Below the pieces are notes generated by a model. That model was not told the DNA's origin. It made no database searches and saw only the letters and a program-made list of their open reading frames with translations. The translations under genes and the position numbers were made by a program. 64,000 nucleotides of DNA from Rhodospirillales bacterium (GTDB taxonomy: Bacteria > Pseudomonadota > Alphaproteobacteria > JAJFIK01): positions 7,620 through 71,619 of the forward strand of contig JAJFIK010000012.1 in assembly GCA_021775005.1 (NCBI GenBank), given 5' to 3'. Shown here in pieces: positions 10,583 to 25,117 of this stretch (its first letter is position 1; the number at the start of each line of letters is the position of its first letter).

Positions 10583-10619
10583 AGGCAGCCTCTTGGGTGA
10601 CCAGGGGGCTGCCTTTTTT
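10583..10619 (+). terminator. Intrinsic terminator between convergent porin and osmC genes
   Basis: AGGCAGCCTCTTGG-gtga-CCAGGGGGCTGCCT followed by TTTTT. Confidence 0.75.
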
Positions 10620-11208
10620 ATCCGTTGCTGTGGTAGCTGATCTCAATGGGTGGAGAGTGCTTGATCGTCTGCATCACAACGCAGCTTTCCTCTCCGGCTT
10701 TGAGGATCGCAGCAATGGTTTGCTCCGGCACGTTCCCGCCATCAATGTCCACGTCAATGGTGAATGACTGAAAGCCCACAGGCACACCTTGGGCCATTTT
10801 GAGCGTTCCGCGCACGTCCACATGACCGCGCACCTGAACGGACAGCGCCTTGAGATCAACGCCCAGGCGGCAGCAGATCAGGCGAATGCAACTGTCAAAG
10901 CAGGCGGCGATGGCCGCACACAGCAGCTCCCCCGGATTTGGGAAGTCGTGATTGCCGCCCACTTTCTCATGAACGCCAATGTCGATGGGCGGTAGATCGT
11001 AGTGCCCGAGGGTCACTTGGCTGTAGAGCGCAGTGGTGCCCGGCACAAAGGCGCTGGTGGTCACCGCCTCGTCCACCACAAGGGCATGGCCTGCATCGGC
11101 CTTGTAAGCCGCATCCAGGCCCGCGTGACGCGCCCCCAGATCAACGGGCAGATAGCTCAGAACAGTGTCCTTAAACGATGGCTGGATGGTTTGGTGCTGA
11201 ATGGTCAT
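10618..11208 (-). CDS. OsmC/Ohr family protein
   Basis: 'GG..DFPNPGELLCAAIAAC' and second Cys 'ESCVV'; 'VDVRGTL...VPVGFQS'. Confidence 0.85.
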   Translation of the reverse strand: MTIQHQTIQPSFKDTVLSYLPVDLGARHAGLDAAYKADAGHALVVDEAVTTSAFVPGTTALYSQVTLGHYDLPPIDIGVHEKVGGNHDFPNPGELLCAAIAACFDSCIRLICCRLGVDLKALSVQVRGHVDVRGTLKMAQGVPVGFQSFTIDVDIDGGNVPEQTIAAILKAGEESCVVMQTIKHSPPIEISYHSNG

Positions 11209-11315
11209 TTTTGGCGCTCCTTCATTGTCTTGATGGCAATGAGGTACGCCCCCCGGGCCGTTGTTGATACTTTGGCCGCGCTAGCATTAGGCTTTGCATT
11301 CGATAGAGAGTCGCT

Positions 11316-12035
11316 ATGAATTTCGTAGTGACCACCACGGAGGCCCATTTGAACAAATCCGGCAGCCTGTGCCCGGCGCTGAAAGCCGCTGATATGATTG
11401 GCGACAAGTGGGTGCTTTTGATCTTGCGCGAGCTGTTTCTCGGCGCAACGCGCTATTCGGACATGCAGCGCGCTATCGCGCGCATTTCCCCCAGTGTCTT
11501 GAGCGGTCGGCTGAAACAGATGGAAGCCCACGGGCTCATCATCAAGCGGACGATCAAAGGGCAGAAGGGCAGTGAGTATCGCCTGACCCGTTCGGGCAAA
11601 GAACTCGCGCCCCTTGTGGATCAGCTTTCCCGCTGGGGCCTTCGGTGGGCGCGGCGCAGATTGGAAGATGAAGACATTGATGTGGGCACATTCATGTGGG
11701 ACTTCCACCGCACGCTCAAGGTTGATGAGCTTCCCGACGGGGAAACGGTCTTCAGTGTTCAAATCACCAATGCCGCCCAGCAAGATAAGTGGTGGCTTTT
11801 GGTGAATGGTGAAACAGTTGATCTTTGCACAGAGGATCCTGGCCAGGACGTGGATCTCTACATCACCGGGGCGCTGAGCGACATTGTGGCGGTGTGGATG
11901 GGGGATGTGACGCCCAAGGACGCCGTGGCAGCGGGCACCGTGCAGCTCACCGGTGCAAAGCATCTCCTCAGCTCAGCCGCGCGCTGGTTTCCGCGCTCTA
12001 TATATGCGGATGTGCGGCCCGAGGATGGGACTTAA
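11316..12035 (+). CDS. HxlR-family winged-helix regulator with C-terminal SCP2-like domain
   Basis: 'CPALKAADMIGDKWVLLILREL..GATRY...LSGRLKQME...EYRLTRSG..L..W'; divergent from osmC. Confidence 0.88.
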   Translation: MNFVVTTTEAHLNKSGSLCPALKAADMIGDKWVLLILRELFLGATRYSDMQRAIARISPSVLSGRLKQMEAHGLIIKRTIKGQKGSEYRLTRSGKELAPLVDQLSRWGLRWARRRLEDEDIDVGTFMWDFHRTLKVDELPDGETVFSVQITNAAQQDKWWLLVNGETVDLCTEDPGQDVDLYITGALSDIVAVWMGDVTPKDAVAAGTVQLTGAKHLLSSAARWFPRSIYADVRPEDGT

Positions 12036-12144
12036 TGTCTCCGGCCTTTTTCTTTGGCAGTGTCCCAAGGCATGTTCCTTGAATCGCTCAGCCACAGGGA
12101 TGCCGGAAACTCGCTCACCGGATGCAATGCCATCTCGATGGAGG

Positions 12145-14460
12145 CTATTCCGATTGCGAATAAAGATGCACATCCCTTTGTGGGAAAGGGATTGCAATGC
12201 CCTGTTCTCTGAAGGCTTTGAATAGCGCAATGCGAATATCGTTGCCCACAAAAAATCTTTTCTGAACGTCGGAGATGAAAACCCGCAACTCAAAATCCAG
12301 TGAGCTGTCCCCGAAGTTCGCAAAATAAACAAAGGGCTCAGGCTCACGCAAAGCAAGGGGGTGTGCCCCTGCGATGTGAAGGGCAATGTCGCGCACCTGT
12401 TCAGGATCCGAACGATAGGAGACACCGAACGGCACAATCACGCGGCCCACGCGATCTTTTAACATCCAATTGGTAATCGGAGCAGTAATCAGCTCGGAAT
12501 TCGGAACAATAATTGACGAGCGCTCAAACGTCTCTATCTCGGTGGAGCGGATGCCAATTTTCTTGACGATGCCTTCGGCCGACGTTGCCACAATCCAATC
12601 ACCTACTTTGATGGGCCGTTCGAACAATAAGATCAATCCGGAAACAAAATTGTTGACGATACTCTGAAGGCCAAACCCGATGCCAACCGAAAGGGCGCCT
12701 GCGATCAGAGCAACACCGGTGAGGTTGAATCCAAATGCGGAAATCGCTGCGGTGAGTGCGATGACGAGCCCCACGTATCCCACTATGGTTTGAAGGGAAT
12801 TACGAATACTGGGCTCAATCTTCGTGCGGGGCAGAATAGTTCGGTCCAAAACCAATTGAAAAAGCCTGGTCGCAGAGAGCAGCGCGACAAACAATCCAAT
12901 TCCGAAAAGAATATTGGCAATGGAAATAGTTACAGGGCCAATTTGAATGCCAAAAAAGGCCTGGGTGAGCCAGTCGGCCAGATCAATCCAATCAATCCCG
13001 AAGATTATCAAAAAGATTGGCAAACTGACCAACAAAATGAGGGCATCCAGCCCAAAATTTATCCAAAAGATAGACAGGCTTGCTTCCGAACTCTGATCCT
13101 CGTTAGGCGGCCCGTGGGTTGCGATAACCGCCTCGGTGGAAAGCCGGTGTACATAATAAACCGTCGCGCCCAGCGCCGTTAGAAACAGCGCTTTTACAAC
13201 AATCAATGCCCCAAGGGCGGGGTAACCGACAAGCGCGGCCCCAACTGCAAGTGTTGCGGCGGCGCGCGTAAGACCATTTATCACCGCTGGCGGCCAACCA
13301 CGTGTCGATACGCGGAATAGAACCGAATGCCAGAATGTCGTGCCGCCCAATAGAAAAAGTGCTGGGCCCACTACAATAGTAAAGACGTAGCTTTGAATAA
13401 TAGTCGCTTCCACGGGGAATGCCGCCATCGTGGCAATCCAATTGAATCCGAGGAAGGCAGCGAGCCCGATGGCGCACCACCAGAATAGCCTGCCGATGCG
13501 TCGCGCATTTCGGTCATCTACATGGACCACACGAAATTCATGGCGGCGCGGCGCCACAAGGGAGGCACCGCTGACGCCCCCAAATGCCAAGCACAGCCCA
13601 ACTTGAAAAAGGATAGCCAAAACCGCAGCATTCTGAAGTGCGGATACACCAAACAGAGCTGCGCCTTGGGCAACCGAGAAGAGTGATGCCAGAACCCAAA
13701 GCCCAACAAGACCAAGGGTTACCGTCGCAAACGCCAACTGCCGTAGATGGCGCTCATGCAGATGCTCTATCTGATGGACCAGCTGATTACTGGCCAAGCG
13801 GCGAAGGCCAAACGCCAAGAAGGGTCCGCCAAAGAGAAGCGCCAGCGCAAATACAATCCGGAGGGAGATCGTATCATTAGTTGACTGCGTCGCTTGTGAC
13901 CAAAGGCTATTTAGGGATGCCGCGTAGTTCTGGAGCCCGTTGGACCAAAGCTGCGCATCAAAAACCAGGGGCGCGGACTGTGTGGCCTCGGATAAATAGA
14001 TGTTACGCCGCTGCGCAGAAACGCGGGAAAGAAGGCGGGATGACTCGGCAAAATTGGAATCCGATTGACGCATAATGTCTTCAAGTCGTTGAGACTGGAT
14101 AAACAGGTCCGTGCGCACAGTGCCAAAGGCGTCATCCTCTGGACCAATCCCCGCTGGCGTTTCTCCCAGCTCGGCAATCTGCAAAAGGACGACAGCTTGG
14201 CGCTGTCTGAGCTGATCTGCCAAAGCGCGCGAGCTACTTCGAACATTGCGGGCGATGGTTCGAATTTCTCTAAGGCGGCTATCGGCCAAATTGTTGGTCG
14301 CCATCTCCACAGAGATCGCCTCAAGCATAGCGCGCCGCTCAACCTGCAAACTGGTAATTTCAGCCAAATCGAAATCCTGGGCAATTACAGGATTCGCCAA
14401 TAGGCTGATGAGGAGTATTGGAAACAGAAAAAGCGACTTCCTGAATGTATCTAAAGCCAT
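12145..14460 (-). CDS. Large MscS-family mechanosensitive channel (N-terminal DUF3772-like helical region)
   Basis: 'GALSVGIGFGLQSIVNNFVSGLILLFERPIKVGDWI...GIRST...IIVPNS...FGDSSLDFEL...IPFPQRD'; ATG 14460 overlaps the zntB end. Confidence 0.92.
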   Translation of the reverse strand: MALDTFRKSLFLFPILLISLLANPVIAQDFDLAEITSLQVERRAMLEAISVEMATNNLADSRLREIRTIARNVRSSSRALADQLRQRQAVVLLQIAELGETPAGIGPEDDAFGTVRTDLFIQSQRLEDIMRQSDSNFAESSRLLSRVSAQRRNIYLSEATQSAPLVFDAQLWSNGLQNYAASLNSLWSQATQSTNDTISLRIVFALALLFGGPFLAFGLRRLASNQLVHQIEHLHERHLRQLAFATVTLGLVGLWVLASLFSVAQGAALFGVSALQNAAVLAILFQVGLCLAFGGVSGASLVAPRRHEFRVVHVDDRNARRIGRLFWWCAIGLAAFLGFNWIATMAAFPVEATIIQSYVFTIVVGPALFLLGGTTFWHSVLFRVSTRGWPPAVINGLTRAAATLAVGAALVGYPALGALIVVKALFLTALGATVYYVHRLSTEAVIATHGPPNEDQSSEASLSIFWINFGLDALILLVSLPIFLIIFGIDWIDLADWLTQAFFGIQIGPVTISIANILFGIGLFVALLSATRLFQLVLDRTILPRTKIEPSIRNSLQTIVGYVGLVIALTAAISAFGFNLTGVALIAGALSVGIGFGLQSIVNNFVSGLILLFERPIKVGDWIVATSAEGIVKKIGIRSTEIETFERSSIIVPNSELITAPITNWMLKDRVGRVIVPFGVSYRSDPEQVRDIALHIAGAHPLALREPEPFVYFANFGDSSLDFELRVFISDVQKRFFVGNDIRIALFKAFREQGIAIPFPQRDVHLYSQSE

Positions 14461-15449
14461 TTGAGGTGCCTGAAAAATGCTAACAATCCCACACCAATAC
14501 CGCCGAGCCCCAAGAACACGAACCAAAAAGCCCAGGGATAGTTTGCACCGGGTATACCCCCCACATTGATCCCCAGAAGGCCGGTTAGAAATCCAAGTGG
14601 CAAGAAGATTGCCGCCACGATGGACAGAACGAGCATGTTTCGGTTCATTGCCTCTGCACGCAGATCGACAATTTGATCATTAAGGATGGCACCCCGATCC
14701 CGCACCGCATCCAGTTCTTCAACATTCCGCGTTAAGTGGTCGGCAAATCCGCGCAACCTGACACGTTCCCGCTGCTGTACAAATGGGGCACCGCTGGATG
14801 CAAAATGATTTAACGCCTCTCTCTGGGGACCGACATGCCGACGAAGCTGAATGGCTGATCGCCGCAGTTGAGCTACCAGGCCCCGGTGGGTGCCAAACTC
14901 GCCATCGACGGTGGCCGCTTCGATTTCATCAACGCTCTCTTCAAGACTTTGAACAACCCCGTCCATTCGCGCTGTCAACCGACCTGCCAGCTCTACTAGA
15001 ATGTGGGTGGTGCTCTGCGGCTTCCACCCCGTCTCGATCATCGCTTGCAAATCTTTGATCGCCATCAGTGGGCGGCGACGCGTTGTAATCAGAATATATG
15101 GTGTCAGCCAAGCCCGAAGCGAAACCATGTCTTCTGGGTCTGCCCCCGGATTGAGATTGATGCCGCGAAAATTGACCAAGAGATCGCCGTCAATTTCCTC
15201 GTATCGCGGGCGGGTCTCCTCGGCCACCAGAGCAATTGCGATTTCTGTTGGAATGTCATTGTTGGCTTTAAGCCAAGCGGTAGTCTCTTCGGACAACGCA
15301 TCCATGTGAAGCCAAAGGAAACTATCTGAGCGGGGTTTCGCAGCGCGATCCTTTACTTCGCCCCAATCAAGGACGGTCACTTCCTGACTTGGAGCTACTG
15401 CAACACCAAAGATCAAAGGTTCAGACATTAGGTATGGTTCCGCTTGCAT
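14451..15449 (-). CDS. zntB: ZntB/CorA family divalent cation transporter
   Basis: 'WLH...ETRPR...NFRGINLNPGADPEDMVSLR', 'FLPLGFLTGLLGINVGGIPG' (GIN rather than CorA GMN), two C-terminal TMs; alternative start 15428. Confidence 0.88.
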   Translation of the reverse strand: MQAEPYLMSEPLIFGVAVAPSQEVTVLDWGEVKDRAAKPRSDSFLWLHMDALSEETTAWLKANNDIPTEIAIALVAEETRPRYEEIDGDLLVNFRGINLNPGADPEDMVSLRAWLTPYILITTRRRPLMAIKDLQAMIETGWKPQSTTHILVELAGRLTARMDGVVQSLEESVDEIEAATVDGEFGTHRGLVAQLRRSAIQLRRHVGPQREALNHFASSGAPFVQQRERVRLRGFADHLTRNVEELDAVRDRGAILNDQIVDLRAEAMNRNMLVLSIVAAIFLPLGFLTGLLGINVGGIPGANYPWAFWFVFLGLGGIGVGLLAFFRHLKWL

Positions 15450-15553
15450 TGGGGTTTAATAATATCTCCCCGCCAGGCTCAAGTAAAAAGAAATATGCGT
15501 TCTGCAGCCCACTGCCTAACCTGGGCGGCGCACAGAAACATACCGCTGATGCA

Positions 15554-15575
15554 TCATGAGAGCATGCTCTCATGA
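15554..15575. promoter_or_regulatory. Perfect 22-bp palindrome, candidate operator upstream of zntB
   Basis: TCATGAGAGCATGCTCTCATGA reads the same on both strands. Confidence 0.5.
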
Positions 15576-15786
15576 CCAAAGACATAGTATACACAGAACG
15601 ATCATTGTGAACATTGGGCTGATCGGATACTGGAAAACGGGTCCCATAGAAAATACCTTGCCGACAACAGATATGTTAGATTGCAACGTCAAGCCGCGCG
15701 GGAGGCAGCCCTCACCAAAGATTGAGAGAGGTGATCTGTGCTGACGCCCTAAGGCATAACCCCTATGCGTCTACTCTGCGATTCCA

Positions 15787-16830
15787 TTAGATGATTTCGT
15801 CCTCATCGAAACTTTGATCAGCATCCAGTTGCGTGGTCATGCTGTCGATTGTTGATTCCGCATCAGTGTTGACCGATAATTTGGCAATGTGGAACAAGCC
15901 GTCGCCTTCGTTCACGACGGGTAAATCTGTTCGACCGACTATCAATCCAGCTTCTGTAACACGAAGTTCTGTTTCGCTTTCACCAAAGGGGTCCGAGATA
16001 ATGCCGAGAATATCATTTTCTGCGACCTGGTCACCTGTGGTTTTGAATGTGCGCATCAAACCTCCAGCAGATGCCCTGATCCAATAGCTAGACCGTGACT
16101 TCATCGGGCTGATTTTGTTGTGGCTGGATTTTTTCGTCGCAACCATATTCAGATGGCGCATCACCCGCTGGATACCCGATACACCAGCACGCACCGCAAA
16201 CTCATCGAACCTAAGGCCCTGCCCGCCTTCATAGACCAGCGCATCAATGTTGTTCTCCTGCGCCATGCGTCGAAGCGAGTTTTCCCTGGTTTTAGCAGTA
16301 AGGATCAGCGGCGGCGCAAAGGCCTCCGCCAGGGCCATGGCGCGCGGGCTGGAGGGAGAAATACGAATCTGCGGTAAATTCGTTCGGTTGACCGCGGCAG
16401 AGTGAAGATCAATGCCAACATCGGACCGCAAAACAACCTCGGTCATGAAGATGTGGGCTAGACGCGCGGCCAGGGATCCTGTGGGGCTGCCGGGAAATGA
16501 TCGGTTCAAGTCTCGCCGATCAGGCAAGTACCTGGAATGGGTCATAAAGCCAAATGTATTCACTACTGGGATCACCAACAGAGTACCTTTCAGGCGCCGC
16601 AAGGCCGGTGATCGAAGAAGCCGCCGCGCAATCTCTACGCCAATGATTTCATCTCCGTGTATGGCGGCGCTAACGAACATGGTTGGGCCCTCGCGTTTGC
16701 CATGCACCACATGCACCGACATGGACACGGGCGTATGGTCAGGCATCACACTTACGGGCAGGTCAACCGTTTCACGGGTTCCGGCCAGAATATTGTGTGT
16801 GCCAATACGAAAGGGTTCTCTTTCTGGCAT
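15787..16830 (-). CDS. Succinylglutamate desuccinylase/aspartoacylase-like M14 zinc deacylase/carboxypeptidase
   Basis: 'AIHGDEIIG', 'RRDLNRSFPG', 'IDLH', 'YEGG'; C-terminal 'GGL...GD.V...PVVNEGD' domain; start overlaps the rimK stop (TAATG). Confidence 0.9.
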   Translation of the reverse strand: MPEREPFRIGTHNILAGTRETVDLPVSVMPDHTPVSMSVHVVHGKREGPTMFVSAAIHGDEIIGVEIARRLLRSPALRRLKGTLLVIPVVNTFGFMTHSRYLPDRRDLNRSFPGSPTGSLAARLAHIFMTEVVLRSDVGIDLHSAAVNRTNLPQIRISPSSPRAMALAEAFAPPLILTAKTRENSLRRMAQENNIDALVYEGGQGLRFDEFAVRAGVSGIQRVMRHLNMVATKKSSHNKISPMKSRSSYWIRASAGGLMRTFKTTGDQVAENDILGIISDPFGESETELRVTEAGLIVGRTDLPVVNEGDGLFHIAKLSVNTDAESTIDSMTTQLDADQSFDEDEII

Positions 16831-17735
16831 TAGCCTCTGCCCTTGGTCTTGGTTTTGTTTGGTTGTGCTGACTTCTCGATGAATTCAATAATTCGGCCAG
16901 CAACATCAATCCCCGTCGCTTTTTCAATGCCTTCGAGTCCGGGCGACGAGTTCACTTCCATGACGACCGGCCCTTCATTGGATCGGAGCATATCGACGCC
17001 GCACACATTCAGCCCCATTCGTTTGGCAGCGCGAACGGCGGTGGAGCGTTCTTCTGGCGATATCTTGACAATTTCGGCGGTACCGCCGCGGTGGAGATTG
17101 GAACGGAACTCACCTTCTGCCCCTGTGCGCTTCATTGTTGCGACCACTCTCTCACCAACAACAAGGGCACGGATGTCGCTACCCCCGGCCTCTTTGACAA
17201 ATTTTTGCACCAGAATATTCACATTGGCTCCACGAAACGCTTCGATAACGGACATGGCCGAGCGATCGGAATCCACCAGCACCACGCCAATCCCTTGCGT
17301 GCCTTCCAGAAGTTTGATCACAAGCGGCGCACCGCCGGTGACACGCAGAACTTCCTCGGTTTGCTTTGGATCATAGGCAAAGGTGGTTTCCGGCAATCCG
17401 AGGCCAGCCTGGGCCAACAACTGAAGAGAGCGAAGCTTATCCCGTGACCGGCCTACAGCAACCGACTCGTTCAAAGGATAAACGCCCATCATTTCGAACT
17501 GTCTCAGAACGGCAAGACCATAAAATGTAATCGAAGCTCCTATGCGAGGAATGACGGCATCGTATCGAGGAAGTTTCTCGCCGTTGTAATAGATCGCTGG
17601 ATTCTTGGACACAATATTCATGTAACAGCGCAGCGTGTCGATGACGTCCAATTGGTGGCCACGTTGTTCGGCGGCTTCTTTCAACCTCTTGTGGGAATAG
17701 AGGTTGGGATTTCGTGCAAGCATTGCGATTCTCAT
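16830..17735 (-). CDS. rimK: RimK family alpha-L-glutamate ligase (ATP-grasp)
   Basis: '[14 protein letters not shown]', '[15 protein letters not shown]', '[12 protein letters not shown]', '[11 protein letters not shown]', 'FRSNLHRGG', '[13 protein letters not shown]'. Confidence 0.96.
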
Positions 17736-17788
17736 GAGTGAAACCCTTTCGAGGTCTGTTGGGGATTAGCAGAATTCGGGAATAAGGA

Positions 17789-18268
17789 TCAGATCGAGTG
17801 GTCTGCTGCGGCGCGAAAAGACCGAGGCAGACCCGCGAGATACGACCGCCCCGGGTCAATGCAAATCCGCCTATTTCTTAGTGCCGTTCGGCCCAAAATG
17901 AGGTCGAACTTCATTTGCTCCCGATCCGCGAGAAACAGTTCAATTCGCCATTGCCGCCGACCGAGCGTTAAATTGGTTTCTATTACATACCTGAGCTCAG
18001 GAACGCCGCTTGTATTCTTGACCTTGCGGGTGTCAAAGATCGGCGCGCGGCAGCGACGCAGGCGCGACGCGCCGGTAGACACAACATCGAATTCGATCCA
18101 GCGCGTATCTTCATGATCGAGCTCGCCAATAATTACCGCGTGTAGCGCAGATGTTCGTGCACCAGTATCGATTTTGGCATTGAGTGAATCGATGCCAAGG
18201 CCGGGTAGCGCGATTGTTTCGCGCCAGCCTATCTCTGAATTCGACCTTTTGGGCTGGCAGGTTGTCAT
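17789..18268 (-). CDS. RimB-like retropepsin-type protease (often annotated ATP-dependent Zn protease)
   Basis: 'IGWRE...AKIDTGARTSALHA...VKNTSG..E.RYVI...LADREQM...ILGR...IDPGRSYL'; ATG 18268 overlaps the upstream stop (ATGA). Confidence 0.88.
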   Translation of the reverse strand: MTTCQPKRSNSEIGWRETIALPGLGIDSLNAKIDTGARTSALHAVIIGELDHEDTRWIEFDVVSTGASRLRRCRAPIFDTRKVKNTSGVPELRYVIETNLTLGRRQWRIELFLADREQMKFDLILGRTALRNRRICIDPGRSYLAGLPRSFRAAADHSI

Positions 18269-18546
18269 TTGAGGCACTCTTCATTGGCGCGCCGATAATT
18301 CACAAATGAATTCGCACTCATCATTACAAAAAAACTCTCCATGTCGATCAGGATGTAGCCTCGATCAAGTAATTCCCGGGTGAGAAAGAGCACATCATCT
18401 TCAAAGAGGCGGCGGCATTTAGTGAGGTGACGGAGGTGTTTGACCGCAATGCGGAAGCGCCCCCTCGGTTTCCCCCCAAAAGGGCGGTCGTAGAGCTTCG
18501 CTAGAGTGCCGGCAGCGTCGATCAGGTTTTGGCGGTCGTCTCTCAT
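18265..18546 (-). CDS. Small hypothetical protein (93 aa), first gene of the rimK operon; possibly winged-helix fold
   Basis: Stop coupled to the protease start by ATGA; ATG sits just after a consensus sigma70 promoter; helix/strand alternation seen by eye. Confidence 0.75.
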   Translation of the reverse strand: MRDDRQNLIDAAGTLAKLYDRPFGGKPRGRFRIAVKHLRHLTKCRRLFEDDVLFLTRELLDRGYILIDMESFFVMMSANSFVNYRRANEECLK

Positions 18547-18552
18547 ACAAAT

Positions 18553-18581
18553 ACTATATAATGGCAAACAATATTTGTCAA
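18553..18581 (-). promoter_or_regulatory. Consensus sigma70 promoter of the rimK operon (leaderless geometry)
   Basis: TTGACA (18581-18576), 17-bp spacer, TATAGT (18558-18553), 6 nt, then ATG at 18546; no SD. Confidence 0.75.
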
Positions 18582-18961
18582 ATAGGTATTTTTTTTGTGA
18601 TATAGACAAATTATATTGTATGTTACCCTGCTAAGACCCAAGCGAGAGGATCCCATGCCGCTTCGTGCCGCCGCTCAATTGACTGATGAGACCTCATCCA
18701 TTGCCAGAGCATCCTCCGCGCCTTTGTGCGGCATGGATCGGCGCAAGCGCATCGGGTCCCCGGGGAGGGGGCACCATCTTTGGCCTGTGGTATTTGCGCA
18801 TGCGCTGAGATCCGCTTCCGGTATTGATGGTCCCAGTTTCGCCGAGTTGGGTCGTCAGATGCCCTCAATTTCTGGAGGCCTTTGACCCTCAACTCAAGCT
18901 GGTGGCGGGCAGATATAGCTGTGCTAGGCTGCTGCCGGGTGATGGATTGGGACGGTTTCAG

Positions 18962-20767
18962 ATGCGCCAAATTGGCATGTCTCAAGAATTATTGCGTTTT
19001 CGTATTTGTATTGCTTGCCTTGGCATCTTCATGCTGCTGGGCGGAGCAGGTGCGGCGTGGGCGAGCGAAATCAGATATCAAACCCAAATCGAAGGCGTCC
19101 GCGATGCAGGGCTGCTTAATCTTCTTTCCCAGTCGTCTCAACTGAAAGCCCTTGAAGGAAGCCCGCCAGCCACCGCCACTGGCCTGCGGCGGCGCGCACA
19201 AGATGACCTTGGGCGTCTCAACGCTGTCTTGCGATCAGAGGGCTATTATGATGGCGAGGTTGGCTTCCGCCTTGTGAGTGGTGACAGTGGAACCACGGTC
19301 TATCTTGACGTGGAAACCGGACAGCGATTTGATCTACGCAGTTTCTCGATCAGCTACGATGGTGTGCCGCCGCGACGGGCGCCACATGCGATCGCTGATC
19401 TCGGTGCCGTGCGGGGTCAACCTGCAACCGGCCGGCTGGTGCTGAGTTTACAAGCGCAAGTTCTCGATACTCTTCACAACAACGGATATCCGTTTGCAGA
19501 GATATCAAGCCGGGACGCGCGGGCGATCCTGGAAACCCATGGTCTTGATGTTGATCTTAATGTTGCACTTGGCCCAATGGTGACCTTTGGCAGTACGAAT
19601 ATTTCCGGGCTCACGCGCATAGATCAATCTTTTGTTCTTGAGCGTATTACTTGGCAAGCGGGAGAACCGTTTAGTCGGCAGAAACTGCGTGACACTCATA
19701 CTGGATTGGAAGGTACCGGCCTCTTTGGAAGTGTCGCTGTCAATGCTGCCGACACGGCCAATGCCGCTGGACAACTTGACGTCAATATCGAAGCGGCGGA
19801 ACGCGCGCCGCGCACCGTTGGCGTCGGTCTTCGTTTTGGCACCAGCGAAGGTGCCGGCGCGCGCGCCTATTGGGAGCACCGAAATATTTTGGGGCGCGGT
19901 GAAAACTTGCGATTTGAAGCTCAGGCTGCGGAAATCCACCAAGAGTTATCTGCGCAGCTTCGTCAGCCGGGGTTTCTTCGGCCCAACCAACAACTCATAA
20001 CGGGCTTGTCGGTCTTCAATACGGTCGCTGAATCCTATGACGAGACAGGCATCACTGGCAGTATCGGACTTGAACGCCAGCTGGATGAAGACTGGCTTGT
20101 GCACGGCAGGGTCGAGGTGCGCGCGTCTTTGGTCGATGAGGGGGACGTCAGGCGCGATACCCGCTTGCTGCAGTTTCCCACGGGGGCCTCTTACAATTCG
20201 TCCAATGATGTTTTTGATCCCGATGCCGGCGCCCGGCTTTCGCTTGTGATCACACCGTCCATTGGCAGCAGCGAGACAGACCTGCTTTTTACCAGCACCG
20301 AAATTCGGGGTTCTTTCTATGAAGGGATCGGCCCCGGTGATCGCATAATTTTGGCCATGCGGTTTCGGGCAGGTTCAATTCTGGGGGAAGGCACGCGCGA
20401 TTTGCCAGCCAGTGACCGCTTTTATTCCGGTGGCGGGGGGTCAGTGCGCGGGATTGGATATCAATTGGCCGGGCCCCTTGACGGCGTGAATGACCCCATT
20501 GGCGGACGTTCTGTTTTTGAAGTTGGTGCCGAAGCGCGCCTTCGTGTCGGTCAGCGCTTTGGCATTGTACCGTTCATCGAAGGCGGCTCGGCGTTCTCAA
20601 ACGATATTCCAGATTTTAGTGAGGATTTGCGATGGGGTGCCGGGATTGGCGTGCGATATTATACGCCAGTGGGCCCGGTGCGATTGGATGTAGCGATCCC
20701 GCTCGACCGCCGGGAAGGGATAGACGACGTCGTGCAGATTTACCTTAGCCTTGGACAGGCATTTTAA
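18962..20767 (+). CDS. tamA: Translocation and assembly module TamA (Omp85 family)
   Basis: Signal peptide, POTRA motifs 'LRSEGYY', 'NNGYPFA'; barrel 'RFYSGGGGSVRG', 'GVRYYTPVGPVRLDVA', C-terminal 'LGQAF'; start 18962 or 18977. Confidence 0.92.
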   Translation: MRQIGMSQELLRFRICIACLGIFMLLGGAGAAWASEIRYQTQIEGVRDAGLLNLLSQSSQLKALEGSPPATATGLRRRAQDDLGRLNAVLRSEGYYDGEVGFRLVSGDSGTTVYLDVETGQRFDLRSFSISYDGVPPRRAPHAIADLGAVRGQPATGRLVLSLQAQVLDTLHNNGYPFAEISSRDARAILETHGLDVDLNVALGPMVTFGSTNISGLTRIDQSFVLERITWQAGEPFSRQKLRDTHTGLEGTGLFGSVAVNAADTANAAGQLDVNIEAAERAPRTVGVGLRFGTSEGAGARAYWEHRNILGRGENLRFEAQAAEIHQELSAQLRQPGFLRPNQQLITGLSVFNTVAESYDETGITGSIGLERQLDEDWLVHGRVEVRASLVDEGDVRRDTRLLQFPTGASYNSSNDVFDPDAGARLSLVITPSIGSSETDLLFTSTEIRGSFYEGIGPGDRIILAMRFRAGSILGEGTRDLPASDRFYSGGGGSVRGIGYQLAGPLDGVNDPIGGRSVFEVGAEARLRVGQRFGIVPFIEGGSAFSNDIPDFSEDLRWGAGIGVRYYTPVGPVRLDVAIPLDRREGIDDVVQIYLSLGQAF

Positions 20768-23700
20768 GTGCAAGTGATGTCTCATTTCTCAATTGTCACG
20801 CTACGGCGACATGCGCCGCGCGCCGCGCGGTGGATGGGTTTCGCCCTGCTTGGCTTGTCGATTTTGTGTGGTCTTGCTCTGGCGGGGATGCAAACGTCGT
20901 GGGTTCAGCGGGCCGCGATAAGCGCTGGACTCAACCCTGTGTTAGCCTCGCGCGGGCTTTCCGCTGAGGTCGGCGATACCGGCGGGTTCTGGCCATGGCG
21001 CGTTTCTGTGCGGGAAATAACTCTTTTCGATCAGGACGGCGCTTTTGCAACAATTGAAAGCATCGACTTTACGGCACGACCCTTCGTATTTCTTGGCGGG
21101 CGTTTGCATCTACCGCAGCTTCAAATTGCCGGCGGCACGATTGATCGCCAACCGGCGTTAGCGACACAAGAAACACGCACAACCCGCTTTCCAACGTTCC
21201 CAGAACATCTTGAACTTCCAGTTGAGGTTCTCATTGATGAGCTGACATTGGAAAACCTTGTGAGCAACGTTGGTGCGCGTTCGGTGACTTTGGCCGGAGA
21301 TGGTCAGGTTCGTCTTACTGATACGCGTTGGATTGGAGCGCTTAATCTCGACAGCGGTGATGGGGGCGGGGCACTTGAATTTGAGTTCAATCCGTCTTCG
21401 CGGGCGGCGCAGATTGATTTTGAACTCGCAGATCCGAACGGCAGTTGGTTGGCACCCCTGGTGCGCCTGCCTGAAGGGGCCGCCTTAAGCGCGAGTCTTC
21501 ATCTGTCGGGGCCCTCCCACGCACTTGAAGTGGCGGGGCAAGCTACCTGGCCAACAGCGCGCATAGCAACGACGGGGACAATCGCCTGGACCGACGTCAT
21601 CGATGCCACGTTGAGCGTTCATGCAAATGGAATGACGCCGCAGGCGTGGGCGGACCTGGCGGGTCAGCGGCAGGACATCACGGTGGCCCTTCACGTCGAT
21701 CAACAAGGTGCGGTGACCATAAGCAGCGGCGAGGTGAGCTCAGGCTCCCTTCACGCGACGCTGGCGGGGTCGATTGCGGAAGATGTGAACCTCAGCGGCC
21801 AGGTGACGCTCGCGCCCGGTTCAGCAGGGCGGCACAACTTTGCGAGCAATCATGTGCGCGAAGCTCAAATGGATTGGGTCCTTGCCGGCTCACGCGATGA
21901 GCCCGCACTTACCCTGTCCGGCAATCTCCAGCAGTTCGGTATTGCAGGAACCGAAATTGACAATTCCGAGATCAATGCCGTTGTCGCTATAGGACGGAAT
22001 GGTCGCCTGGCGGATGTAGCCGTTGAGATTGCCGCAAATGGATTTGAAGGTGGTGCCCTTCCTCCCCAGCTTTTGGGCGAGCCGCTTTCGGCCCGCGCCC
22101 GCTTCCGGGCTGACGTCGAGCGGGAATCTGCAAACATAGAAGAACTTGTGGCGGTATGGGGCGCGGTCGAAATTGAAGGCGAGGGAACAGTGGCCGTTGA
22201 CCGGGCCATGTCCTTTGCAGGGCAGGTGTGGGTTCAAGATCTCGCGCTGGTGCATAGCGAGGCTCGCGGCACAGCGCGCATCACCTTCGACGCACGACGC
22301 CGTTCGCGAGAAGGGCCTTTAACGCTCTCGGGCGGGATGGAAACCGAGGGATTGCAGCTCCCCGATCAATTGGCGCGGTTATTTGGGGATAACCCGACGG
22401 CCACATTTGATGCAGAAGTCCTGCCGCTGGAGATCAATCTTACTTCGTTTTCACTGGCAGGCGTCGGCGCACGCGCCACAATGGGTGGCCGCGTTGATCG
22501 GGGGCAAAACAGGGTTGCCCTTTCCGGCAGCGCTGAGCTTGACGATTTGGGTGCCCTCGATGCCTTGTTGACCGGGCAGGCAACAGGCACTTTCGACATC
22601 CAGGGCCCAATGGATGCCCCGCAGGTGCAGGCGCAAGGCCGCAGCAATGCGATGACCCTTGGCAGGGCCCCGTTGTCAAATCTTGTTGCAACGGTTGCTG
22701 GCACCCCTGATCAGATGCAAATCACGGCAACAGCGCGATCAGGCGATGCGCCCGTTGAGTTGCATTACGATTTTTCGCACATGCCTGATGTGATGATTGG
22801 CGAGCTGGCGCTTCAGATTGCCGCCCTTCGTGCATCCGGGCCTCTTGGTATTCGGAACGGAGAGGTGACTGGTAGCCTAGCGCTTGCCGCAGATGACATT
22901 GCGGACGCGGCTGTAATGGTACGTGCCTTTGGCGGTACGCAAGATAACCTTTCTGTGCATGGCGGTCTTGAAGGGCAGGTGAACCTTGAGGGCGGTCTCC
23001 TCTCGGCCGACGTTATTCTAACCGCGCTACGACTTGACGGGATTGGGTCAGCTGCCAATGCCGCTGCGTTGGAGCTATCGGGGCAAGTCGATGTTTCAGA
23101 CTTGCGCGTGATTGCGGCAGAAGCGGCCCTTCGTGATGCCCTCTTTGGGCCAAGTACTTTTAGCTCCATAACCGCGACAGCGTCAGGACCACTTAATGCT
23201 CTTGCCGTTGATCTGGCCCTTCGAGGGCCCTCTGACTATCCATTTGAAGTTGATGCCGCAGCGTTGCGGCGCGAAAGCGGTGCGGGTTCTGTAGTTGAGA
23301 TCACAAACTTTCAAGGGCGATCACTTGGGTTCATTGTAGCGCTGGAGCAGGGCGGGGCGATTGAGCTGGGCCCCAACGGTGTCACATTGGCGGAAACGCG
23401 CTTCAGCGTTGCAAATACGGCAACAGGGCGGGTTGGGACACTTGCAGCGCAAGCACAGCTTTGGGCGGGCGCCCCTTTTGTGAGGCTTGAGGCTGAAACT
23501 GTTCCTGCTGGCGCTTTGGCTGTTTTTGGCATTCCAGTTGACTGGACCGGAACACTCAATGGTCTTGCCGTACTTGATGCGCGCGGTGACGGGGATCGGC
23601 TCGCCGTTGATATGCGCGCAAGCAATCTGACCAATGATCCCGACGTGTCGCCTCTCGATGTCGATCTTGTTGCCCGTGCCAGTGGGCAAGATTTGGTTGC

Positions 23701-25117
23701 CAGTTTAACGGTCAATGATTCAAGCGTTAATAGATCGCTCGTGAATGCAGAGATGCGCGGACCGCTGGTCTGGCCCAGCGGTGTGCTTGTGCCCCCCTTT
23801 GATTGGGATGCCCCAATTGAGGGGGCGGCAGACATCCAGTCGCCGCTTGAACGCCTATGGCTGTTTGTCCCGATTGATACCATTGGTGTTGCTGGAATGC
23901 TGGAAGGGGCCGTTGAATTTGGGGGATCTTTAGGCGCGCCTGCGGCAAACGGAAGCTTGAATTTGACCAATGGAACTCTTGAGCACGTCCAGACCGGGTT
24001 TTTGTTAGCCGATGCGCAGGGCGCGTTGAGCTTCACCCAATCTGGCGACATCAACATCGACTTTCGCGCCAGCGATGGAAACAGCGGTCGGGCGCGGTTG
24101 ACCGGAACGGCCCACCTGCCGCGCGCCCAGGCATGGCAGATCGAAGGGGGGCTGCGCCTCAACTCATTAGCCCTGGGGCGCCGCGATGAATTGCGCGCGG
24201 TCGCCAGCGGCAATCTTGAGCTTTCCGGTTCACTTGTCGATGCGCGTCTTTCCGGTGATCTCACAATGGAGCGCATTGACGCTCAAATTCCAAACCGACT
24301 GCCGCCCTCCGTTGTGGAAATTGAAGTGGTCCGTATCGGCGCCGACGGCGCTCCGATTGTTAGACCTGCCGATCCGGTTAGGCGTCAGCAGATGAGATTG
24401 CCTATAACGCTGGACGTCAACGTTGCAATCCCCAATCGCGCCTTCATACGCGGTCGCGGTTTGGACAGTGAATGGGGCGGCTCGCTTGCTCTTTCGGGCA
24501 CCATGACTGCGCCGCGAATGCGTGGCACATTAGATGTGCTGCGCGGCACCTTCGATTTTTCCCGTACGCGTTTCGCGCTTACACAAGGGCAGATCGTCTT
24601 CACAGGCGGGGATCGGATTGATCCATCCCTGGCCGTACGCGCCGAAGCGCCGGGCCCTGAATTCACCTCTATTTTGATCGGCAGCGGTCGGGCGCGGGCA
24701 CCGTCTATTCGGGTTACCTCTGATCCGGTCCGGCCTGAGGAGACTGTGATGGCTCAAATTCTTTTCGGCAAGCCGCCGGACGAATTGACAGCTCTTGAAC
24801 TCATCCAAATAGCGGATGCGATGGCAACGCTATCGGGTCGGGGCGGTGGCGGTGTTCTATCCGGAACCAGGCGCGCCCTTGGGCTTGACTTTCTTTCCTT
24901 TGATACCGGCACCTCGGCGGAGGGCAATCGCAATGCGAGTGTCAGCGTCGGTCAGTATGTAACGCCCAACATCTTTGTGGGGACCAGAAGGGGGGCCGAG
25001 GCCGGCAGCGGCAGCGTAACCGTAGAAATGGGTGTCAGCCCCAATGTAACCGTCGATGCGGAGGTTCGCCAAGACGGTCAGGGAAGCATGGGTGTGGATT
25101 GGCGACGGGATTATTAG
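20768..25117 (+). CDS. tamB: Translocation and assembly module TamB (DUF490)
   Basis: N-terminal TM, long Gly-rich beta repeats, C-terminal 'IRGRGLDSEWGG.L.L.GT...P', 'LFGK', 'VGQYV', 'GVDWRRDY'; adjacent to tamA. Confidence 0.9.
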   Translation: MQVMSHFSIVTLRRHAPRAARWMGFALLGLSILCGLALAGMQTSWVQRAAISAGLNPVLASRGLSAEVGDTGGFWPWRVSVREITLFDQDGAFATIESIDFTARPFVFLGGRLHLPQLQIAGGTIDRQPALATQETRTTRFPTFPEHLELPVEVLIDELTLENLVSNVGARSVTLAGDGQVRLTDTRWIGALNLDSGDGGGALEFEFNPSSRAAQIDFELADPNGSWLAPLVRLPEGAALSASLHLSGPSHALEVAGQATWPTARIATTGTIAWTDVIDATLSVHANGMTPQAWADLAGQRQDITVALHVDQQGAVTISSGEVSSGSLHATLAGSIAEDVNLSGQVTLAPGSAGRHNFASNHVREAQMDWVLAGSRDEPALTLSGNLQQFGIAGTEIDNSEINAVVAIGRNGRLADVAVEIAANGFEGGALPPQLLGEPLSARARFRADVERESANIEELVAVWGAVEIEGEGTVAVDRAMSFAGQVWVQDLALVHSEARGTARITFDARRRSREGPLTLSGGMETEGLQLPDQLARLFGDNPTATFDAEVLPLEINLTSFSLAGVGARATMGGRVDRGQNRVALSGSAELDDLGALDALLTGQATGTFDIQGPMDAPQVQAQGRSNAMTLGRAPLSNLVATVAGTPDQMQITATARSGDAPVELHYDFSHMPDVMIGELALQIAALRASGPLGIRNGEVTGSLALAADDIADAAVMVRAFGGTQDNLSVHGGLEGQVNLEGGLLSADVILTALRLDGIGSAANAAALELSGQVDVSDLRVIAAEAALRDALFGPSTFSSITATASGPLNALAVDLALRGPSDYPFEVDAAALRRESGAGSVVEITNFQGRSLGFIVALEQGGAIELGPNGVTLAETRFSVANTATGRVGTLAAQAQLWAGAPFVRLEAETVPAGALAVFGIPVDWTGTLNGLAVLDARGDGDRLAVDMRASNLTNDPDVSPLDVDLVARASGQDLVASLTVNDSSVNRSLVNAEMRGPLVWPSGVLVPPFDWDAPIEGAADIQSPLERLWLFVPIDTIGVAGMLEGAVEFGGSLGAPAANGSLNLTNGTLEHVQTGFLLADAQGALSFTQSGDINIDFRASDGNSGRARLTGTAHLPRAQAWQIEGGLRLNSLALGRRDELRAVASGNLELSGSLVDARLSGDLTMERIDAQIPNRLPPSVVEIEVVRIGADGAPIVRPADPVRRQQMRLPITLDVNVAIPNRAFIRGRGLDSEWGGSLALSGTMTAPRMRGTLDVLRGTFDFSRTRFALTQGQIVFTGGDRIDPSLAVRAEAPGPEFTSILIGSGRARAPSIRVTSDPVRPEETVMAQILFGKPPDELTALELIQIADAMATLSGRGGGGVLSGTRRALGLDFLSFDTGTSAEGNRNASVSVGQYVTPNIFVGTRRGAEAGSGSVTVEMGVSPNVTVDAEVRQDGQGSMGVDWRRDY

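Follow-up and report, generated by a model that had tools for sequence, protein, structure and literature searches.

Recurrent linkage of a rimK glutamate ligase cluster to cation transporter and MscS-family channel genes in Alphaproteobacteria

Introduction

RimK, an ATP-grasp ligase known for decades, belongs in Pseudomonas to the RimABK/RimBK system that also contains the retropepsin-like protease RimB and the phosphodiesterase RimA (PMC4741518, PMC7343187, PMC11957791). RimB is reported to cut poly-glutamate tails and to stimulate the synthesis of free poly-alpha-glutamate by RimK, and the purpose of the free polymer is posed as a question by the Pseudomonas authors (PMC11957791). A separate described system of P. 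aeruginosa is the cmaX-cfrX-cmpX operon, which encodes a CorA/ZntB-type transporter and an MscS-type channel together with a small protein (PMC7641640). The present report concerns a cluster of six genes in which relatives of both systems stand side by side, located in a 64-kb stretch of contig JAJFIK010000012.1 from a Rhodospirillales bacterium (GCA_021775005.1); this whole stretch is called the window and all coordinates refer to it. One module of the cluster encodes a small protein (ORF93), a RimB-like DTG protease, RimK and an M14 hydrolase, and the other a CmaX/ZntB-type transporter and an MscS-family channel, all six genes lying on the minus strand. Overall, the best explanation of the results is that the two modules serve one physiological circuit, to which we assign a probability of about 0.5.

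The window cluster shares with the Pseudomonas Rim system an orthologous RimK encoded directly downstream of a RimB-family DTG protease (PMC4741518, PMC7343187, PMC11957791), and the logic of a writer and an eraser is common to both. It differs in having no RimA, a protease that scores under the RimB equivalog cut-off, an M14 gene translationally coupled to rimK and the small regulator-like ORF93; moreover, the alphaproteobacterial cluster is recurrently linked to cation transporter and MscS genes, and S6 there is usually without a terminal Glu. The order of transporter then channel on one strand is the same as in the cmaX-cfrX-cmpX operon (PMC7641640), but no cfrX-like gene separates the two in the window since they overlap by 10 nt, the channel, with 771 residues, is of an MscK-like form and not a small MscS, the surroundings showed no sigX-type gene and the rim cluster is adjacent. 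The RloABC system of P. aeruginosa, comprised of secreted RimB-like proteases, a seven-transmembrane (7TM) inactive transglutaminase and a RimK-like ATP-grasp protein, likewise pairs a retropepsin-like poly-glutamate protease with an ATP-grasp enzyme, and its link to hypo-osmotic tolerance is the theme also raised by the MscS neighbour in the window (PMC12239564). The window cluster differs from RloABC in having no RloB-type membrane protein and in its ligase, which is a true RimK and not RloC.

The M14 hydrolase has the PF24827 domain of the AstE/aspartoacylase/DoeB branch, with the His-x-x-Glu motif and distal His aligned, although its scores with the three equivalog models are all far too low to reach the cut-offs. 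In the tubulin glutamylation cycle, TTLL ATP-grasp ligases write glutamate chains and CCP M14 carboxypeptidases remove them from the end, like RimK and the M14 hydrolase; that cycle differs in its enzyme subfamilies and gamma-linked branch points, and has neither an endopeptidase nor a link to ion transport. While RimK/RimB biology and the cmaX-cmpX pair are already known, no literature was found on the M14 partner, on ORF93 and its palindrome, or on linkage of rim genes to CmaX/ZntB, MgtE, CDF or MscS genes, in a search outside of which most subscription journals lie. The recurrent linkage to ion-related genes is a concrete handle on the question of a role of RimK beyond the S6 tail.

Results and Discussion

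Linkage of rimK to transporter and channel genes

The surroundings of rimK were compared in the best 80 of 590 confirmed RimK loci, with RimK identities of 68-83%. Three of these loci end less than 700 nt upstream of rimK and three less than 1100 nt downstream, so that adjacency counts are lower bounds, and neighbours were detected by tblastn with few seed proteins, a procedure that misses distant transporters. A RimB-like gene adjoins rimK in 63 loci, an M14 gene in 61 and both in 48. At least one ion-related gene (ZntB, MscS, MgtE or CDF) was found within 4 kb of this core in 10 of the 80 loci, with MgtE in five, MscS in five, ZntB in four and CDF in one; a further MscS fragment, in L035, is cut by the contig end. 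The density of genes of these four families was 24.2 per Mb within 4 kb and 7.6 per Mb at 4-10 kb, compared with 2.5 per Mb across the window genome. When 599 neighbouring open reading frames (ORFs) were clustered without bias, most families represented lineage-specific synteny, with MscS (5 loci), MgtE (4) and ZntB (3) belonging to the small group that crossed lineages.

A sample of the class was also searched, comprised of 400 other alphaproteobacterial genomes drawn evenly with one per species, at thresholds of E<=1e-60 for RimK and E<=1e-30 for ZntB-like proteins; G051 and G249 enter only as 2 of the 400 in denominators. RimK was found in 59 genomes, a ZntB-like protein in 85 and both in 28. 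The two genes were within 10 kb of one another in six of the 28, against 0.215 genomes expected under uniform placement, with a Poisson probability of 1e-7 that assumes independent genomes and is overstated in significance by kinship. The distance was 8.2 kb in G008 and 1.4-3.0 kb in G085, G111, G218, G227 and G391. These six genomes fall in five families, G111 and G391 belonging to the same genus.

Several of the linked loci are tight operons, and the gene order varies. In L099 (G227) the order ORF93-rimB-rimK-M14 is followed after 33 nt by mscS, which overlaps zntB by 4 nt, whereas the orders are msrB-zntB-rimB-rimK-M14-mscS-CDF in L100 (G218), ORF93-rimB-rimK-M14-CDF-zntB-mscS in L015 and rimK-zntB-mscS-rimB in L043 (Parasulfitobacter algicola). 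The zntB gene adjoins genes for RimBK hybrid proteins in L101 and L102, and L103 (G391, contig C14) contains mscS, a split zntB, a split Na+/H+ exchanger gene, rimK and M14. The arrangement is convergent in L045 and divergent in L081 and L168. The linkage involves both RimK and RimBK hybrid types and is a minority state.

Four further features of these loci were recorded. In L043 rimK is immediately preceded by a divergent gene for a circularly permuted ATP-grasp protein (PF14403/PF04174; 8369-9793, minus strand). The L103 cluster has two rimK genes, and its zntB-like and Na+/H+ exchanger genes are each in two ORFs, which could be due to decay or to assembly frameshifts. In L010, L042, L044, L072 and L076, five loci from different families, an MgtE-type Mg2+ transporter is encoded no more than 4 kb from the RimK cluster; in L010 and L072 its gene precedes rimB by ~50 nt and has the same orientation. 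Cultured species with MgtE next to the cluster include Pelagimonas varians and Devosia rhodophyticola. RimB-RimK hybrid genes, which have been described (PMC11957791), are common in the alphaproteobacterial sample as open frames of 460-530 aa, and in L101 (G111), L102 (G085) and L103 (G391) they are beside a zntB-like gene.

A RimK tree (FastTree, 93 rows) was labelled for the presence of an ion gene within 6 kb, a label carried by 19 rows, of which L099-L103 had been picked because they were linked, the rows L091 and L094-L098 having been added as relatives. The label requires 16 changes, at least eight of them forced by starred branches, compared with a mean of 17.4 for shuffled labels. Since the label is scattered over the tree, the linkage has been gained or lost many times and is not the property of one inherited clade. 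Records titled Pirellulaceae, Nocardioides marinus and Marinimicrobia (L008, L077, L058/L064/L079/L080) contain RimK proteins 68-80% identical to that of the window and nested among alphaproteobacterial rows, a placement that points to gene transfer or mis-binned contigs.

Chance could have brought two unrelated accessory modules together in a variable region, the repeats elsewhere being islands that collect accessory genes. Such an explanation is in accord with the 337-nt gap between the modules in the window, which has promoter-like sites and a palindrome of its own, with the occurrence of each module alone in many genomes, and with the lack of any RimK or ZntB-like match in either same-genus genome. 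Also in accord is genus g49, where three genomes have the mscS-zntB pair and only one of them, G227, has the rim cassette directly upstream. Chance is nevertheless improbable, based on the six linked genomes of 28 where 0.2 were expected, the approximately tenfold local enrichment with its distance gradient, the eight or more independent changes on the RimK tree, the tight overlapping operons that interleave the genes (L043, L099, L100, L101), and the occurrence of linkage with split RimB+RimK and hybrid RimBK forms and with three unrelated transporter families. Linkage of zntB/mscS to the rimB-rimK-M14 triad in other genomes, on which the first-pass annotation had made its proposal of a single cassette depend, does recur far above chance in shuffled orders and several families, but as the minority arrangement (10 of 80 loci, 6 of 28 genomes).

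RimK and ribosomal protein S6

The rimK gene (16830-17735, minus strand) encodes a protein that scores 442.9 bits with NF007764, the S6--L-glutamate ligase equivalog with a cut-off of 331. Matches to PF08443 (217 bits) and PF18030 (154 bits) give the ATP-grasp and pre-ATP-grasp architecture. Residues 1-301 align over the full length with the solved RimK of Pseudomonas (7qyr, 440.3 bits), and the match to the solved E. coli RimK (4iwx, 395.7 bits) is also full-length. By these comparisons the window protein is a true RimK and a predicted ATP-grasp alpha-L-glutamate ligase.

The above-cut-off score and the full-length matches to solved S6-modifying enzymes are also what would be seen if RimK, RimB and M14 merely tuned the glutamate tail of S6, with the ion-related neighbours reflecting a translation apparatus retuned under the same ionic or osmotic stress, since ribosomes depend on Mg2+, and no polymer chemistry involved. 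RimK and RimB write and erase the S6 tail in Pseudomonas (PMC11957791, PMC4741518). The window genome encodes an S6 that ends in Glu; its gene, rpsF, is on contig C42, in agreement with the earlier statement that rpsF is absent from the window.

The C-terminus of S6 was compared among the best 150 rows listed, taking every RimK-positive alphaproteobacterial genome among them (21) and the 39 highest-ranked RimK-negative ones, with G051 and G249 left aside; one RimK-negative genome was dropped because the frame ran off the contig end, leaving 38. S6 ended in Glu in 5 of the 21 RimK-positive and 14 of the 38 RimK-negative genomes, and in Glu-Glu in 1 of 21 and 5 of 38, respectively. Thus a Glu-ended S6 showed no positive association with RimK in this sample and was rejected as a marker of RimK presence. 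Since it is usually missing in RimK-positive genomes, the acceptor of the E. coli/Pseudomonas type is usually missing where RimK is kept. On this comparison of sequences, S6 is weakened as the general target of RimK in Alphaproteobacteria, provided that a terminal Glu is required. Some RimK-bearing bacteria without a Glu-ended S6 are mentioned in the discussion of PMC11957791. A restriction of the cluster to S6 is considered unlikely, based on these counts, which matter if the terminal Glu is needed, and on the M14 partner: enzymes of the AstE/AspA type are best known for acting on small N-acyl amino acids and not on protein tails.

Glutamate runs that could serve as a genome-encoded substrate were looked for in the naive ORFs of at least 100 aa in the window genome. 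Among the 6792 scanned, none ended in EEE or contained six consecutive Glu. With no genome-encoded poly-glutamate substrate, the substrate of the RimB-like protease must be a product of RimK.

The RimB-like protease and the M14 hydrolase

The protease gene (17789-18268, minus strand) is separated from rimK by 53 nt. The product belongs to PF05618 (102.8 bits, cut-off 27), the retropepsin-type aspartic endopeptidases, and has the DTG motif at residues 34-36; in an alignment of 28 protease sequences D34 and G36 are invariant and T35 is nearly so. The score with the RimB equivalog NF052261 was 117.7 bits, below the cut-off of 200, and for this reason the protein is named RimB-like and not RimB. 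Scores with the Rlo models were 56-60 bits against cut-offs of 210-280, and no signal peptide was visible by eye.

The M14 gene (15787-16830, minus strand) encodes a zinc hydrolase of the AstE/AspA type that matches PF24827 with 127.7 bits (cut-off 25). H58-x-x-E61 and H143 have identical counterparts in the alignments with the solved 3cdx and DoeB (6twl) structures, and we take H58, E61 and H143 to be the zinc ligands. The scores with the equivalog models of DoeB (73.2 against 402.7 bits), AspA (22.2 against 180) and AstE (20.5 against 305.65) are far below the cut-offs. From these values the protein is assigned, on sequence grounds, to a separate AstE/AspA-type subfamily that is a conserved partner of RimK. 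An exo-acting, glutamate-releasing role is proposed. The family and motif tests fit the earlier interpretation of the triad as one writer and two erasers of glutamate chains.

Mammalian RimK-like enzymes make N-acetylaspartylglutamate and beta-citrylglutamate. By analogy, RimK in the window could join Glu to a small acid or make a short oligo-glutamate that serves as a metal-binding compound or compatible solute, with M14 as the specific amidase and with the channel and transporters moving the compound or the metal. The named relatives of M14 hydrolyse N-acyl amino acids (succinylglutamate, N-acetylaspartate, N-acetyl-diaminobutyrate), the solved DoeB is its second-best relative, cation transporters are recurrent neighbours, and mammalian RIMKLA/B and aspartoacylase co-occur in some of the literature on N-acetylaspartate metabolism. 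However, RimK is a close full-length relative of polymer-forming, S6-modifying enzymes, and it is accompanied in 63 of 80 loci by a RimB-type endopeptidase that in Pseudomonas is reported to need runs of Glu (PMC11957791, PMC12239564). Furthermore, the conserved neighbours in the 80 RimK loci do not include an extra ligase or acyl-donor enzyme. A small-molecule product is thus quite improbable as the explanation of the cluster.

ORF93 and its upstream palindrome

ORF93 (18265-18546, minus strand) encodes a basic protein of 93 aa from the ATG. Among 57 candidates, 55 were homologues of ~93 aa, an alignment of 28 rows has a mean column identity of 63%, and the protein falls in an Atlas cluster of 1412 members with a score of 0.92. 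No Pfam or NCBIfam family was matched, and a sequence comparison with solved structures gave nothing below E 0.4. The AlphaFold 2 (AF2) model has a predicted local distance difference test (pLDDT) score of 88.9. The model gave weak fold matches, with a lowest Foldseek E of 0.043 and a highest VIA Z of 6.8, short of 8 in every case, and the top rows were mostly winged-helix domains. The label YcgL, given by JGI to some homologues, was rejected since PF05166 was touched in just 3 of 28 members, with E of 0.097 or higher.

Of the 80 RimK loci, 13 have ORF93, in each case accompanied by the whole triad, and it is either the first gene of the operon or divergent from it (11 co-directional and 2 divergent loci). 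A comparison of upstream regions revealed a shared palindrome located over the first promoter hexamer. With up to 2 mismatches the palindrome was found directly upstream of ORF93 in 8 of the 13 ORF93-bearing loci (0.22 Mb searched) and in none of the 67 loci without ORF93 (1.19 Mb searched), while at 3 mismatches it was found in 10 of 13 and 13 of 67, respectively. The ORF93-specific palindrome, the first or divergent gene position and the mostly winged-helix fold matches lead us to read ORF93 as a regulator. Together with the structural model, they suggest a DNA-binding protein, probably of the winged-helix type, that would act as autoregulator of the rim operon.

The promoter of the ORF93 operon is predicted at 18553-18581 (minus strand), where a sigma-70-like site with a 17-nt spacer agrees with the consensus at 11 of 12 positions. 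It is the best of 8 sites found, with 5.0±2.2 expected from shuffled sequences. The ORF93 ATG at 18546 starts 7 nt past the second hexamer, a spacing at which the start would be leaderless; the arrangement suggests an ORF93 mRNA that is leaderless or nearly so. By eye, spacings of 6-8 nt between hexamer and ATG were seen in several other ORF93 loci.

The transporter-channel module and the intermodular gap

The transporter gene (14451-15449, minus strand) encodes a CorA-family protein with 211.8 bits to PF01544. Its scores are under the cut-offs of both the ZntB model NF007092 (222.1 against 292 bits) and the CorA equivalog (108.8 against 200.75). ZntB-type proteins have the pore motif G-I/V-N rather than GMN, and the window protein has GIN. 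Among solved relatives CmaX of P. aeruginosa scores best (7nh9, 193.9 bits), compared with 160.6 bits for E. coli ZntB (5n9y), and the pore-loop stretch that contains GIN is identical in the transporter and CmaX. A review describes transport of Zn2+, Mg2+, Cd2+, Ni2+ and Co2+ by PaZntB/CmaX (PMC10932157). A metagenome scan for the closest ZntB relatives gave three loci, all too short for gene context.

The channel gene (12145-14460, minus strand) encodes a 771-aa protein of the MscS family with PF00924 (84.4 bits) and PF21082 (63.8 bits), both above cut-off. The C-terminal 260 aa match the MscK, MscM and MscS models, all below the equivalog cut-offs, and the long N-terminal part with its signal-like start recalls MscK. 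The longest ORF would start upstream, at 14526; the 10-nt overlap with zntB that had been claimed is obtained with the ATG that gives the 771-aa channel.

In the class sample the ZntB-MscS pair was found in at least 11 genomes besides that of the window, a lower bound since the best 150 of 302 MscS matches were used; the tables were compared by hand. This distribution of gene orders shows that the transporter/MscS pairing of the cmaX-cmpX type, as assigned from sequence, is widespread in Alphaproteobacteria and extends beyond Pseudomonas.

The modules are separated by a gap of 337 nt (15450-15786, minus strand). It contains two weak promoter-like sites, at 15611-15584 and 15487-15459 on the minus strand, each with 9 of 12 consensus positions, and a perfect palindrome of 20 bp (15555-15574), which is preceded by one of these sites and followed by zntB. 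A search of the 2.85-Mb genome that allowed up to 3 mismatches gave no second copy, and the palindrome is a candidate operator. No terminator-like site was found on the coding strand of the gap, and a search for riboswitches gave no Rfam match with E<=1 over 11900-19000.

Proposed circuit and its strength

Based on the observed gene identities, catalytic motifs and recurrent linkage, the following mechanism is proposed, with a glutamate chain as the relevant product. RimK would use ATP to extend a protein C-terminus with Glu or to build free poly-alpha-glutamate, the DTG protease would cut the chains internally, and the AstE/AspA-type zinc hydrolase would take terminal Glu off the short products. 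ORF93 would bind at the operon promoter as a small winged-helix autoregulator, and the cmaX/zntB-like and mscS module would move divalent cations and vent solutes. Conversion between glutamate and polyanion would change how many osmotically active particles are present and how much Mg2+, Zn2+ and K+ is bound, and cells that run such a glutamate cycle would gain from an adjacent cation transporter and release valve.

The strength of this proposal differs among its parts. Functional coupling of the two modules is rather likely. The buffering of ions and osmolytes by the polyanion is put forward tentatively, as a mechanism that may well not hold. It agrees with published work in that the authors of PMC11957791 discuss, as speculation, an osmotic effect of draining the glutamate pool, and in that the RimB paralogues named RloA are described as needed under hypo-osmotic stress (PMC12239564). 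In addition, a comparison of brackish with marine sister genomes is reported to give higher frequencies in the brackish ones for each of rimK, corA and a gene for a mechanosensitive channel (PMC10219603). A wider version, which we consider doubtful, is that RimK, RimB and M14 form a regulated cytoplasmic polyanion capacitor that acts within minutes on osmotic solutes and on the binding of Mg2+, Zn2+ and K+, with CmaX/ZntB, MgtE, CDF and MscS proteins as its valves, S6 glutamylation as a side use, and the whole shared across phyla.

In addition to the kinship of the linked genomes and the selection of rows for the RimK tree, several results weigh against one circuit of both modules. RimK and ZntB are apart in 22 of the 28 genomes that hold both, and 70 of the 80 RimK loci are without a ZntB, MscS, MgtE or CDF neighbour. 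Outside the class, 30 Pseudomonadota genomes with both genes include one linked case, G509, in which zntB is accompanied by a divergent rimB-rimK-M14 and a convergent weak MscS match. The ZntB-MscS pair occurs without an adjacent RimK in at least nine genomes (G004, G054, G138, G198, G206, G250, G325, G336 and G355), six of which (G054, G198, G206, G250, G325 and G355) have RimK elsewhere. The S6 of the window genome ends in a single Glu and not Glu-Glu, and this S6 may be modified. The ORF93 palindrome has no copy in the window at up to 3 mismatches, two degenerate copies being discernible by eye. Finally, since the 337-nt gap has its own promoter-like sites and a unique palindrome, the two modules in the window are probably regulated apart, even if there is read-through. 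Of the earlier interpretation, the gene names and the reading of the triad fit the family and motif tests. The linkage recurs elsewhere, but it is the less common state, and a common regulation of the two modules in this genome is improbable.

The case for the common circuit rests on a linkage that spans three unrelated families of divalent-cation transporters as well as mechanosensitive channels. It hints that glutamate chains help to manage ions or osmotic stress; on the wider, capacitor reading, S6 glutamylation would be a side use of a general device for ion and osmotic homeostasis. The AstE/AspA-type hydrolase is also assigned to the RimK system as its likely partner enzyme, and ORF93, together with the palindrome, as its likely regulator.

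Genomic setting

The ORF coordinates place the six genes where the first-pass annotation had them. Its claims of coupling were likewise borne out: the ORF93 stop lies on the protease ATG with an overlap of 4 nt, and the rimK stop and M14 start have one base in common.

The description of the surroundings as an accessory region is reasonable, based on the same-genus genomes and on a dip in G+C content. In G001 (96% complete) and G002 (91%) no RimK was matched at E<=1e-40 and no ZntB-like protein at E<=1e-20, and the G+C content is 0.52-0.54 over 12-18 kb compared with 0.54-0.61 in most of the window. In a DNA-level comparison with the same-genus genomes only a porin gene and small pieces align, with 67-75% identity, and an insertion boundary of the cluster could not be drawn from these matches.

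The mscS end of the cluster is flanked (10618-12035) by an OsmC-family gene on the minus strand and, on the plus strand, a gene for a regulator of the HxlR type whose C-terminal part is SCP2-like; homologues of these two genes were looked for in the 80 RimK loci, and none was seen. On the other side, genes for TamA (Omp85/POTRA) and a TamB-like protein of 1449 aa (18824-25117, plus strand) are divergent from the rim operon. In the same-family genome G008 (L091, contig C61) rimK-rimB is divergent from tamA as in the window, and the zntB-like gene is located beyond tamB.

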